From: a virus
Taxonomy: Duplodnaviria > Heunggongvirae > Uroviricota > Caudoviricetes
Strand: one strand, 5' to 3'
Virus record (IMG/VR): IMGVR_UViG_3300029157_000020
Length of the DNA: 5,965 nt
Shown here one piece after another: positions 2,751-5,151 of the stretch. Positions within the stretch are counted from its first letter, which is position 1. Every line of letters starts with the position of its first letter. Both the position numbers and the translations under genes were made by a program. The notes beneath the pieces are model-generated. The model was not told the origin of the DNA and ran no database searches. It saw nothing but the letters and a program-made list of their open reading frames with translations.

Positions 2751-3017
2751 TTAAAGGCCAACCTGGCGAACGGGCGATAACTCAGATACCAGCCACATAT
2801 CTGCCTCTTCAAACATATCCTCCAGCATGCGGTTCAGCTTTTCCCGATCGTTTTTGCTGGCATCACTATTCAAGCCGTTCGCCTGCATTGGCTTTACCTT
2901 CACTTCTGCATCAGGAAAAATCTGGTGCACTCGCTTTGTTAGCTCAGCCAGGATGATCTCTCTGGCCCCTTGGAGCCCTTCAACATTTCGCTTGTCATAA
3001 ACCAGTTCAACAAACAT
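2751..3017 (-). CDS. DinI-family protein (DNA-damage-inducible protein I paralogue), 88 aa
   Basis: MFVELVYDKRNVEGLQGAREIILAELTKRVHQIFPDAEVKVKPMQANGLNSDASKNDREKLNRMLEDMFEEADMWLVSE... aligns by eye with E. coli DinI (...ELSRRIQYAFPDNEGHVSVRY...ILQETWESADDWFVSE). ATG at 3015-3017 (complement) is preceded by a good SD (AAGAGGA, 5-nt spacer). A minus-strand TTGACT -35 (complement of 3091-3096) and a LexA box lie upstream. Confidence 0.8.
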   Translation of the reverse strand: MFVELVYDKRNVEGLQGAREIILAELTKRVHQIFPDAEVKVKPMQANGLNSDASKNDREKLNRMLEDMFEEADMWLVSELSPVRQVGL

Positions 3018-3117: not shown

Positions 3118-3357
3118 ATGCCTCGCCAACCGGATATTCGTGCTGCTTTTATTGCGGCCATACAGCAAAACCCTAAGGGCTATCTCTGCCTGCACAAAGA
3201 CAAATTCATCGCTGAACTGCAGGAGAGGCACTGGCATTTCAGCCTGGCGGATGCAAATTCATGGATCGAGCGATTCCAGCCGGAGTTCGCCGATAAGACG
3301 ACAAACGGAAGCGAGAACCGATACTGGATCCTGCGTAACATGGGGATGGTTTACTAA
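3118..3357 (+). CDS. Hypothetical 79-aa protein divergent from the DinI-like gene; putatively LexA-controlled
   Basis: ATG at 3118 is preceded by GAGGG (3106-3110, 7-nt spacer); stop TAA at 3355-3357. The translation MPRQPDIRAAFIAAIQQNPKGYLCLHKDKFIAELQERHWHFSLADANSWIERFQPEFADKTTNGSENRYWILRNMGMVY has balanced composition. The overlapping alternative frame (3140-3448) is Arg/Ser-rich junk. No family recognised. Confidence 0.55.
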   Translation: MPRQPDIRAAFIAAIQQNPKGYLCLHKDKFIAELQERHWHFSLADANSWIERFQPEFADKTTNGSENRYWILRNMGMVY

Positions 3358-3398
3358 TGGGATTTCCATCCCCAGCCATGGATTACTAGGAGCAGCGC

Positions 3399-3464
3399 AT
3401 GACGATAGATGTTATCTGCGGTGTAGACAACAACTGCCGGGTTATTGAAACTTCATGCGGCTAG
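3399..3464 (+). CDS. Possible 21-codon Cys-rich small ORF (MTIDVICGVDNNCRVIETSCG), or the 5' piece of a decayed gene
   Basis: ATG at 3399 is preceded by a canonical AGGAG (3388-3392, 6-nt spacer); stop TAG at 3462-3464. Downstream frames contain protein-like but interrupted segments. Weak call. Confidence 0.2.
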   Translation: MTIDVICGVDNNCRVIETSCG

Positions 3465-3740
3465 GCCGTTATTAACGTCAGTCTGAAGCCAGAAGAGGGG
3501 ATGCGTTGCTGGTTAGCATGGACGGGAGAAACCAGTTTGTGAAGCTAATGGGTCAGGCGCTGATCACTTAAGATGGTGAAGCGATTGAAGGGGAAGCTCT
3601 GAATGATGTAACGGTGCACGGCGTTCTTACACATACACTTAACCAGGTTAAAGACGATAAATCGCCTGTAATGTAGCGTGTAACTGTCGGTGGTTATTCC
3701 CCAATTTTTCCCCAATGCTTCCCCGTACAAATTTCAAACA

Positions 3741-3770
3741 TGAAAAAACCAGCCGTAAAAGGCTGGTTTT
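3741..3770. terminator. Bidirectional rho-independent terminator immediately 3' of the tRNA-Pro fragment
   Basis: Stem AACCAGCC (3747-3754), loop GTAAAA, stem GGCTGGTT (3761-3768), flanked by an A-run (3742-3746) on one side and TT on the other. On the minus strand it gives a stem followed by TTTTT directly downstream of the tRNA CCA end. Confidence 0.6.
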
Positions 3771-3781
3771 CAATGTGTTTT

Positions 3782-3831
3782 TGGTCGGCACGAGAGGATT
3801 TGAACCTCCGACCCCCGACACCCCATGACGG
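3782..3831 (-). tRNA. Truncated tRNA-Pro (anticodon GGG, proL-like): 3' 50 nt only (positions about 27-76); not a functional gene
   Basis: Minus-strand sequence CCGTCATGGGGTGTCGGGGGTCGGAGGTTCAAATCCTCTCGTGCCGACCA contains the anticodon loop (U33, GGG at 34-36), variable loop, T-arm (GGAGG-TTCAAAT-CCTCT), acceptor 3' strand and CCA. It matches the 3' half of E. coli tRNA-Pro(GGG) as I recall it. Beyond 3831 the sequence (ATGTTCAAATTT...) no longer matches the D-arm or acceptor 5' strand. Confidence 0.75.
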
Positions 3832-3858
3832 ATGTTCAAATTTCTTCTAGCTTATCTA

Positions 3859-4272
3859 TTAGAGTAATTGAAGAGTCCGCAAAGTTATTTGCAGCGTCCT
3901 GTGGAATTTCAAAATTATGTTTATATGCAGCCATGTTACGCAGTTGCGTAAGCTATCGTGTAGAGCTGCAAAATCTAAATCAACCAAGCCAGCTTTATAA
4001 AGCAAGCGCATAAGATGATATCCATTCATTAGCTCAAAGCGTCGGTCGTTTGAATGAGGAGGCAATTCAATTGTTCCAACATCAACTTTTCGTTTCACAC
4101 CATTCCGCAATGAATTTTCAAGTTTCAGATAGGATTTCATAACATTCTCATAAGGGCTTAAGAAAAAAGTCCTTGTAACGCTCTGAGTTGTCTTTTTCTT
4201 TATCTGAAATAATTTCAGCCTACCCAGCAGCTTCTGCTGCTTGCTCTTCATACATAATCTCAAACTTATCAT
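3859..4272 (-). CDS. Hypothetical protein, 137 aa, AT-rich, Lys-rich N-terminus; no family recognised
   Basis: A 414-nt open frame in strongly AT-rich DNA, which is unlikely by chance given the stop-codon density. ATG at 4270-4272 (complement) has no obvious SD; internal Met codons at residues 8 and 45 are alternative starts. It ends 28 bp from the tRNA fragment breakpoint. Contains an R-x6-H spacing (RNCVTWLH), but this is too weak to assign a HEPN-type fold. Confidence 0.45.
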   Translation of the reverse strand: MISLRLCMKSKQQKLLGRLKLFQIKKKTTQSVTRTFFLSPYENVMKSYLKLENSLRNGVKRKVDVGTIELPPHSNDRRFELMNGYHLMRLLYKAGLVDLDFAALHDSLRNCVTWLHINIILKFHRTLQITLRTLQLL

Positions 4273-4746
4273 ATTTTATTGATTTTATTGTTCTAATAAG
4301 TTTGAAAAGGTCATATCGACCGTAATAGAGAAAACTGGCCAAAAGAACTGGCCAGGCTAGCGACTTGATCATTGATGACAGGAATGTCAGAAAATCCATT
4401 GTCTTTGCTTTTCATCGAAGTAGAGATAGAGTATATGTTACAAAATCGTTCTCCTAAATGAAAGTAAATCATCTATATTTCAGCATGTCAGATTTTGTGG
4501 TTCAGCGTTAAAAAAATCTCTGTAATTAAGTGGTTTATCAAAATAACAAGGCCTTAAGATACTTTTTTAATTTAATGCTGTCAGCATTATCGATAAAGCG
4601 CAATTCAGGCTTAATGCCCTGGCTATTAACGCTGGTTCATTCACTATGTCGCCTGGTTATAACATCACCTAGCGCTGGTTCGCTATTGCGAGTTAGCTAA
4701 GACAATTAAATTCAGCGTAAAAGCACAGGCGTTTTATGATGAAAAT

Positions 4747-5151
4747 TTGAGTGTTATCCCGGCTGATGCTGTAGACTTTACTCAAGAAGAACATATTCAT
4801 CTCATCGCCGGGATGAATGATGGTGAGCAACGTGTCTGCAGTGATACAGGCGGGAAATTGATGCTGTCTGGCCGCAGACCTTCTCAATGGTATACCTGGG
4901 ATAATGATAATAATGCGTGGGCTATTTCGGATCATGCACGGGTCCAGCTTGCAGAAGCTGAGAAATTTCGTCGAATCCATGAGGCAAACGACTTTATCAA
5001 TAACCAGCAATTGCCTGGCAAAACTGCCATGGGGCGACTGAAAGATTCAGAGAAAGAACACTACAATTTGTGGCTGGATTATCTTAAAGCGCTGGAGGCG
5101 GTCGATACATCAACTGCGCCAGATATCCTCTGGATAGATAAACCTGAATAA
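4747..5151 (+). CDS. tfa: Phage tail-fiber assembly protein (Tfa family); orphan, and possibly 5'-defective
   Basis: The C-terminal region ...[26 protein letters not shown]...[33 protein letters not shown] parallels lambda/Rac-type Tfa C-termini (...WVKDTEAEKLFRIREAEE...[26 protein letters not shown]). There is no in-frame ATG: the frame opens after TAA at 4660-4662, the first start-like codon is TTG at 4747, and an ATG-ATG at 4736-4741 with an AGG upstream is in a different frame and hits TGA after 4 codons. No tail-fiber gene lies upstream (4273-4660 is AT-rich non-coding). Confidence 0.75.
   Translation: [134 protein letters not shown]

Follow-up and report, generated by a model that had tools for sequence, protein, structure and literature searches.

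A 137-codon open reading frame at a prophage-remnant edge is very probably an accidental frame across a decayed gene for a membrane-anchored HEPN protein

We analyzed a 5,965-nt stretch of viral DNA (IMG/VR record IMGVR_UViG_3300029157_000020, Caudoviricetes; the window below), in which an open reading frame (ORF) of 137 aa lies on the minus strand at 3859-4272. An earlier inspection of the letters alone (the sequence-only reading) had described this ORF as an orphan without a recognizable family, placed just inside an attachment (att)-like boundary. The whole of the evidence is best explained by an accidental open frame across a dead ribonuclease (RNase) gene, and we consider this explanation very probable. 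The gene, at 3836-4399 on the minus strand, encoded a 188-aa protein with an N-terminal transmembrane (TM) helix carrying a Trp-Pro (WP) signature and a DUF4145-like HEPN domain. The pseudogene belongs, as a dead member, to a family that is already known from computational description and is called the WP-TM/HEPN family here.

The ORF itself was present as first described, within a loosely drawn bracket (3832-4300). Its G+C content is 36%, and the block 3832-4750 likewise has 36% G+C versus about 50% to its left, in agreement with the AT-richness noted before. Among 2000 shuffles of 3832-4750, an open stretch of at least 137 aa occurred in 0.25%, which bears out the claim that the frame exceeds noise. 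The missing Shine-Dalgarno signal was also confirmed, as no AGGAG-like sequence precedes the ATG at 4272. When the 137-aa translation was used as a query in a protein search, near-identical 137-aa copies were found together with intact 188-aa proteins from the Enterobacter cloacae complex, Kosakonia oryzae, and E. mori, which cover 62-63% of the query; intact 188-aa homologues are known from the Enterobacter cloacae complex, Kosakonia, Proteus, and Pantoea. The other searches were negative in their respective scopes. Pfam, NCBIfam, and PADLOC gave no meaningful match to the 137-aa ORF itself, Rfam gave no match on the window, and tblastn against 50,697 deposited phage genomes found no copy of the ORF. 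A blastn search of 3832-4750 against plasmids gave a match limited to the tail-fibre-assembly part. An opposite-strand gene was also considered, and the candidate, a 62-aa ORF at 3825-4013 on the plus strand, was rejected as it has no family match.

The lesions of the gene were located by DNA alignment with three intact loci. The pseudogene is about 90% identical over its whole length to the intact 567-nt genes of the Enterobacter cloacae complex (L007-L010), apart from three gaps or stops. The alignment places the ancestral start ATG at 4397-4399, 127 nt upstream of the start of the 137-aa ORF, and the ancestral stop TGA at 3836-3838, 23 nt downstream of its end (both on the minus strand). 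The first lesion is a GAG-to-TAG nonsense mutation at codon 60 (4220-4222, minus strand), which is common to a sister lineage (L019-L021). The second is a 2-nt deletion in or at a T-run at about 4163-4168 on the same strand (GATTTTGTTTTC changed to GACTTTTTTC), which moves reading into the frame of the 137-aa ORF; in the sister lineage, 1 nt is deleted there instead. The third is a 1-nt deletion at about 3942/3943 on the minus strand (AACTTGCGT changed to AACTGCGT), one codon before Arg155. As a result, the 137-aa frame no longer reads the RNxxAH motif or the last helix; this deletion is not found in the sister lineage. The fourth is a CAT-to-TAT change (3923-3925, minus strand) that replaces His160 with Tyr in the RNxxAH (Rx4H) HEPN motif; the motif of the window copy reads RNMAAY and is out of frame for the 137-aa ORF. 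The TAG codon and the two deletions thus deprive the window copy of the uninterrupted frame colinear with its homologues, and in silico repair of these three frame lesions gave a 188-aa protein colinear with P0004, an intact relative. Because there is no full-length product and the catalytic His is replaced, the window copy no longer functions as a HEPN enzyme.

The 137-aa ORF is a composite with respect to the ancestral gene. It starts in an out-of-frame stretch upstream of the 2-nt deletion and leaves the frame again past the 1-nt deletion, so that about 36 N-terminal and 27 C-terminal codons misread the ancestral gene and the authentic frame is limited to about 74 middle codons, roughly 3943-4162 (FFLSPYE...LHDSLRN). 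Upstream, a separate 59-aa ORF (4220-4399, minus strand) corresponds to residues 1-59, that is, the N-terminal TM module with W16-P17 according to alignment and hydropathy, and is ended by the premature TAG. The ancestral C-terminal 34 residues lie in the frame of this 59-aa ORF, up to the TGA at 3836-3838. The sole sigma-70-like match upstream of the ancestral start, a candidate promoter at 4556-4584 (minus strand) with a weak consensus match, falls within the upstream stretch of about 180 bp that is conserved with intact loci. The sequence-only reading had suggested that a genuine 137-aa gene starts at an internal Met or in an atypical initiation context; this suggestion was not upheld, as the frame runs by accident across a pseudogene whose ATG lies at 4399. 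A functional orphan gene of this kind is highly improbable. The excess over chance length, which might speak for it, is due to descent from a real gene, and the identical 137-aa translation that recurs on many contigs retains the conserved frame only in its middle part, with the RNxxAH motif and the last HEPN helix lost by frameshift and the TM module absent from the product. The ORF also lacks a Shine-Dalgarno sequence, close relatives have other frames and ends, and the 137-aa architecture was found in no homologue except the near-identical copies.

The decay of the gene was further examined in independent sequences. The same lesions were found in independent isolate and metagenome assemblies of different projects (L001-L006), which are 98.6-99.9% identical to the window. 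The 137-aa product occurs on 80, 27, and 58 contigs, and products of the pseudogene occur on more than 150 contigs. The sister lineage, which comprises E. roggenkampii GCA_034107685 and two read-set assemblies, has the TAG codon and H160Y in common with the window, has lost only 1 nt in the T-run, is free of the second deletion, and has an additional AAA-to-TAA change at codon 172; other cluster members have differing ORF ends. The frame-disrupting variation among homologues that the sequence-only reading had named as evidence against a gene was therefore observed. Because the sister lineage has TAG and H160Y in common with the window but otherwise different lesions, the gene appears to have undergone stepwise neutral decay after an ancestral nonsense mutation. 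The neighborhood is decayed too, with a UmuD-like gene, an acyltransferase gene, and the OrfB of an IS3 element all broken. It is scarcely credible in view of these data that the stop and the frameshifts are sequencing or assembly errors and that the gene is intact in the organism. Two of the lesions do lie in or near homopolymer-like runs (the T-run and AAC(T)TG), which are prone to indel errors on some platforms; however, all three frame lesions recur across the independent assemblies and the many contigs, the TAG is a substitution and no indel, the lesions of the sister lineage follow the pattern of stepwise decay, and the neighboring genes are broken as well. Rescue by programmed frameshifting or readthrough was rejected on account of the three separate lesions of different kinds and the different lesions of the sister lineage.

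Selection was examined through ratios of nonsynonymous to synonymous substitution rates (dN/dS, Nei-Gojobori), which were obtained from the three intact pairs with measurable dS, since dS was saturated in more distant pairs. The ratios were 0.14 for L007-L016, 0.08 for L016-L013, and 0.26 for L015-L012, and the length of the intact protein is held at 188-190 aa down to 42% identity. These results indicate that the intact genes are under purifying selection. Between the two pseudogene lineages the ratio was 0.53, a value from only 6 changes at a dS of 0.017. It is unlikely that a fragment of the relic retains a function, either as a 59-aa Trp-Pro TM peptide or as an internal-Met HEPN fragment, that would serve as a small membrane protein or would regulate an intact paralogue in a dominant-negative manner. 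The 59-aa ORF has preserved its start codon and upstream region together with the family's most conserved module, in which W16 and P17 lie, and the same TM module is known fused to other output domains; however, the window copy carries F50Y, a change at a residue that at least 90% of the family conserve, and no intact paralogue was found among the loci examined. The presence of the TAG in two sub-lineages implies that the truncated form persisted for some time, and such persistence is equally expected of a young neutral relic with this low dS; the ratio of 0.53, with its 6 changes, is uninformative on this point.

Next, the family to which the dead gene belongs was characterized from its intact members. 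A profile built from nine homologues was run against 1.84 billion cluster representatives and matched 2433 at E ≤ 1e-3 and 551 at E ≤ 1e-10; among the 150 matches listed, nearly all align over almost the full length (about 175-205 aa). Conservation was scored in an alignment of 60 members spanning 22-91% identity. F6, W16, and P17 are invariant in this alignment, and M1, E47, F50, P83, E95, L134, R155, N156, and H160 are conserved in at least 90% of the members, while R155-N156-M-A-A-H160 is invariant in the nine close homologues. The N-terminal 25 residues or so are hydrophobic, with the Kyte-Doolittle 19-residue windows starting at residues 3 and 6 reaching 1.66-1.73 as the sole windows above 1.6, and residues 28-50 contain 6 K/R versus 3 D/E. 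Based on these hydropathy windows and the basic segment that follows them, one TM helix is predicted, with the rest of the protein in the cytoplasm.

The remainder of the protein was compared with profile and structure collections. In Pfam, the only families that the 60 members matched in any number were those of the HEPN clan, namely, DUF4145 (36/60, E ≤ 0.01), HEPN_RiboL-PSP (25/60), and HepT-like (6/60), in addition to Swt1-like and HEPN. PHROG 18019, a phage protein family that carries no functional annotation, matched 59 of the 60 members (best E 2.5e-19), and its match to P0004 covers profile positions 7-170 of 185. With 188-aa homologues, 2433 cluster representatives, and matches to HEPN/DUF4145 and PHROG 18019, the gene is no orphan. 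The AlphaFold2 model of P0004 has a mean predicted local distance difference test score (pLDDT) of 76.6, with the C-terminal domain mostly at 82-93. Its helices at 83-107, 127-136, 142-160, and 168-187 form the all-alpha four-helix up-and-down bundle that is expected of HEPN domains, and the Rx4-6H motif, located where the last long helix pair begins, is present in the family and lost in the window copy. The top Foldseek matches of the model are HepT toxins, with a probability of up to 0.98, and a profile search of the PDB aligned the RN..H motif with HepN toxins (E 0.13); nothing significant was found by Foldseek against viral structures. Helical bundles draw spurious fold matches. In PADLOC, the 60 members gave scattered weak matches to HEPN-bearing models (CARF_HEPN, 3; PD-T7-4, 2; Cas13d, 1). 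Altogether, the ancestral protein appears to have been a 188-aa inner-membrane protein with a Trp-Pro TM helix, a short charged linker, and a cytoplasmic four-helix DUF4145-like HEPN domain.

This architecture corresponds to a published description. Anantharaman et al. (2013; Biol Direct 8:15; PMC3710099) described a HEPN family that overlaps with DUF4145 and has a single N-terminal TM helix whose WP signature is strictly conserved, and predicted that it forms the cytoplasmic part of a protein in the inner membrane that degrades RNA upon surface stimuli. The likeness to that description consists of the N-terminal hydrophobic helix with W16-P17, the C-terminal HEPN domain with RNxxAH, and the length of about 185 aa. 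The published family was described computationally, and the window copy differs from it in being a pseudogene with the catalytic His replaced. More distant members scored 24.2 and 23.1 bits against DUF4145 (PF13643), at or above its gathering cut-off of 23.1 bits, and others scored 18-22 bits. The family therefore straddles the DUF4145 threshold, as the 2013 wording "overlaps with" suggests.

In addition to the gene, we examined the att-like boundary beside it. The last 50 nt (3' end) of a proL-type tRNA-Pro lie at 3782-3831 on the minus strand as the relic of a phage attachment-site core and begin 4 nt past the ancestral stop codon; ARAGORN found no complete tRNA in the window. The region 2750-3831 matches at 93-95% the DinI-bearing arm of proL-inserted E. 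coli prophages and of phages such as Flotzy, and this homology ends at 3827-3831. The same arm adjoins the full proL gene in strain CX21, and attP and the integrase in Flotzy. The boundary proposed in the sequence-only reading is thus real, because the homology stops there and the arm adjoins proL or attP elsewhere. On the other side of the junction, the arm of the lambdoid proL-integrating phage occupies 2750-3781 and contains a DinI gene (2751-3017, minus strand) and a 79-aa ORF (3118-3357, plus strand), both of which look intact. It also contains the UmuD-like gene (3357-3677, plus strand; 106 aa in Flotzy), which is broken by in-frame stops at Gln11 and Trp36 and by a frameshift. A G+C-rich hairpin followed by a T-run (3744-3771), resembling a bidirectional terminator, comes after the tRNA fragment and is common to native proL loci and the Flotzy attP.

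The upstream region, the gene, the tRNA-Pro relic, and the terminator form a conserved cassette of about 0.9 kb (3693-4580, minus strand), which is 85-90% identical to Enterobacter and Kosakonia loci. Its upstream edge abuts a displaced 3' fragment of icd (icd') in those loci, and its homology borders are sharp at both att relics. We infer that the cassette was produced by integration-module swapping or tandem integration. The stop codon is separated from the tRNA-Pro fragment by 4-25 nt in Enterobacter, Kosakonia, and Pantoea, despite proteins that are only 42% identical. One idea is that the intact family is a single-gene, membrane-triggered abortive-infection RNase at prophage tips and that the tRNA-Pro half is functional as well, for example, by being co-transcribed and serving as a decoy or as an RNA antitoxin against an anticodon nuclease; we regard this combination as very unlikely. 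The relic cores carry 1-2 substitutions in different lineages, and the tRNA-Pro linkage is missing in Proteus, P. ananatis, and icd-only loci. The juxtaposition of the gene and the tRNA-Pro half is for these reasons most simply read as a plain att scar.

Two repeats were observed at this junction. On the phage-arm side of the tRNA-Pro core, two or three direct repeats TT(A/T)TTCCCCAA with 11-nt spacing lie at 3694-3726, and at this position Kosakonia and Pantoea carry a triple repeat of another wording (GGTAAAA); these repeats may be arm-type integrase binding sites. A 13-nt inverted repeat (3798-3810 and 3829-3841, 92% complementary) links the region of the HEPN stop codon with the T-arm part of the tRNA-Pro fragment, and its gene-end arm is kept in Enterobacter and Kosakonia and not in Pantoea allii.

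The genomic location of the cassette was then examined. The whole window and, separately, 3700-4700 were compared by megablast with 5426 complete E. coli genomes. Nothing matched from 3832 onwards, the matches being confined to the tRNA-Pro/phage arm and the IS3 element, so the host is not E. coli. Chromosomal DNA flanking the same locus shares only about 77% identity with E. coli, and the window belongs to an Enterobacter roggenkampii-like genome. In two related loci (L019 and L003), the whole window lies between icd' (residues 359-416) and icd with an integrase fragment. The window sits in a decayed e14-like cryptic prophage remnant at icd, and the gene is at the outermost, integrase-distal end of the prophage. 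A homologous icd' fragment (residues about 352-416), which marks the far end of e14-like prophages, is found directly upstream of the intact HEPN gene at 9662-9823 in L007-L010, 7663-7851 in L016, and 7663-7827 in L017, and in intact Enterobacter loci it ends 178 bp upstream of the gene. The position is analogous to that of mcrA, which we take to be the gene adjoining icd' at the integrase-distal end of e14. The analogy is one of position only, with the WP-TM/HEPN gene being the last before icd' in Enterobacter and Kosakonia, and there is no sequence relation to McrA.

Past the stop codon, intact Enterobacter loci carry the tRNA-Pro relic, DinI, SRAP, a variable gene (DUF2971 or KAP NTPase), UmuDC, a Pin-type invertase, and tail fibres, and the arrangement in Kosakonia is the same. 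The Pantoea allii gene (42% protein identity) has a tRNA-Pro relic within about 25 nt, followed by UmuC and tail fibres. Other copies adjoin icd' and UmuD/tail genes without a tRNA relic, one copy is in an island beside the tmRNA gene with DUF2971, an AAA_21 protein, and an HNH protein, and the Proteus copy is in a conjugative-element-like region. The Proteus region (L013/L014) contains TrbL, NikA-like, and AlpA genes, and a 306-aa protein with a weak DUF4145 match is encoded there at 10036-10956, about 1.5 kb from the TM-HEPN gene with an insertion sequence (IS) element between them. A scan of 185,579 species-representative genomes with two peptide patterns built from the nine close homologues found 1 locus, that of Pantoea allii. 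Because no neighbor is conserved, the gene stands alone as cargo at prophage tips. A HepT-MntA toxin-antitoxin pair was considered and rejected, as no MNT-type nucleotidyltransferase Pfam family was matched by any gene in the loci examined.

We propose that the intact protein would be a metal-independent RNase, as in HEPN biology, that is held at the inner membrane and stays silent until a phage- or envelope-derived signal activates it. It would then cut RNA and arrest growth, resulting in abortive infection or exclusion, and would be carried as cargo at the integrase-distal tip of lambdoid and e14-like prophages. By analogy with known HEPN proteins, the intact protein is likely to be a HEPN RNase, and the chances that it has a defence role appear evenly balanced. 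The precedents for this model are the prophage-encoded HEPN proteins HepS and Tha and the DUF4145 effectors RAZR and Ishtar. The earlier suggestion of toxin or defence cargo at an island edge was thus partly retained. It fits the ancestor, a HEPN-type ribonuclease gene at the edge of a prophage remnant with an att relic, and not the 137-aa ORF, which is no gene.

The known systems resemble the family to different extents. HepS of the Salmonella Gifsy-1 prophage (Sargen et al. 2026, PMC13043305) is, according to its abstract, a single-protein HEPN abortive-infection system in which an anticodon nuclease is activated when a structural protein of a phage is sensed. As a stand-alone, prophage-encoded HEPN protein it is a precedent for such cargo; however, the solved HepS chain has 218 residues and no detectable sequence similarity to the WP-TM/HEPN family, the abstract mentions no TM segment, and nothing in the present analysis points to a tail-tip trigger or a tRNA target in the family. 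Tha is likewise a prophage-encoded single HEPN protein with a proven abortive-infection role. The HepT/MntA toxins (Shewanella SO_3166; PDB 5yep, 6m6w, and 7bxo) gave the best PDB profile and Foldseek matches, through the helix with the ...LRNxxxH motif, but with E-values of only 0.07-0.3, and the WP-TM/HEPN family has an additional N-terminal TM module. RAZR (zinc finger and DUF4145 RNase) and Ishtar (HEPN DUF4145/DUF3644) are also single-gene immune proteins with a DUF4145-type HEPN effector in mobile or defence loci, and they have a zinc finger or a C-terminal beta-rich domain where the present family has an N-terminal WP TM helix. A HEPN-TM immune system on phage-inducible chromosomal island (PICI) satellites, listed in a review, can be likened to the family by name only; a literature search returned this single mention for "HEPN-TM" and nothing for "TM-HEPN".

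Several observations weigh against the proposed reading of the gene and its family. The close intact homologues score 15.5-17 bits against DUF4145, below the gathering cut-off, and the Foldseek E-values of the P0004 model are weak (0.07 or higher). PADLOC-DB v2.0.0 (with P0004 and P0005 as queries) and NCBIfam gave no match to the close homologues, and the searched literature contains no experimentally tested family member. No conserved partner or antitoxin neighbor was found in the loci examined, although a constitutively toxic RNase would usually have one. Activity as an RNase, location in the membrane, and a role in defence are inferences, and the 59-aa TM ORF and an internal-Met fragment of the relic could still be translated.

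Some of these observations would also fit an intact protein that is not a defence or abortive-infection toxin and acts instead as a housekeeping-type, signal-responsive membrane RNase or as a non-catalytic RNA binder, as also suggested by Anantharaman et al. We consider this alternative doubtful, although it deserves more weight than those discussed above. The 2013 analysis proposes RNA degradation dependent on surface stimuli and leaves defence unspecified, PADLOC matches are absent from the close homologues and only sporadic and weak HEPN matches in distant members, and there is no antitoxin partner. However, all the contexts examined are edges of prophages, integrative elements, or the tmRNA island, and the gene is sporadic, as indicated by the single locus in the species-representative scan. 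PHROG 18019 places the family in phage genomes, the neighbors (DUF2971, KAP NTPase, and the AAA_21 and HNH proteins) are typical accessory or defence cargo, and HepS and Tha show that single HEPN proteins of prophages can have proven abortive-infection roles.

The window contains other features outside the cassette and the phage arm. An IS3-family insertion sequence (96-1037) is 99.2% identical to E. coli copies and is missing at the same spot in some sister contigs (L003). The OrfB transposase of this element is divided between two overlapping ORFs (196-642 and 531-1019), and the element is therefore probably inactive. At about 1040-1173, the tail of an ORF at 910-1173 is a C-terminal scrap of an IS200/IS605-type Y1 transposase, and the equivalent ORFs in L004 and L006 gave a weak match to Pfam Y1_Tnp. 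An Acyl_transf_3 (O-acetyltransferase-like) gene at 1247-2352 on the minus strand is split into ORFs of 109 aa and 208 aa, whereas the sister contig L003 has one intact 369-aa acyltransferase ORF; with this split gene, the window has a second pseudogene. A 134-aa tail-fibre-assembly (Caudo_TAP) ORF at 4747-5151 on the plus strand is oriented away from the att relic. It belongs to a segment of about 2.7 kb, with an acyltransferase gene outside the window, that lies between the HEPN cassette and icd' in the lineage of the window and not in intact Enterobacter loci.

Gene callers split the relic into "hypothetical proteins" of 59 aa and 137 aa across many Enterobacter assemblies, and the present analysis corrects this view, in that a decayed gene, and no new one, underlies the striking open frame in the AT-rich DNA of this island edge. 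Its intact 188-aa relatives form a large family that recurs at prophage tips beside attachment-site relics, and an intact allele such as P0004 is a reasonable candidate for a phage-defence screen.

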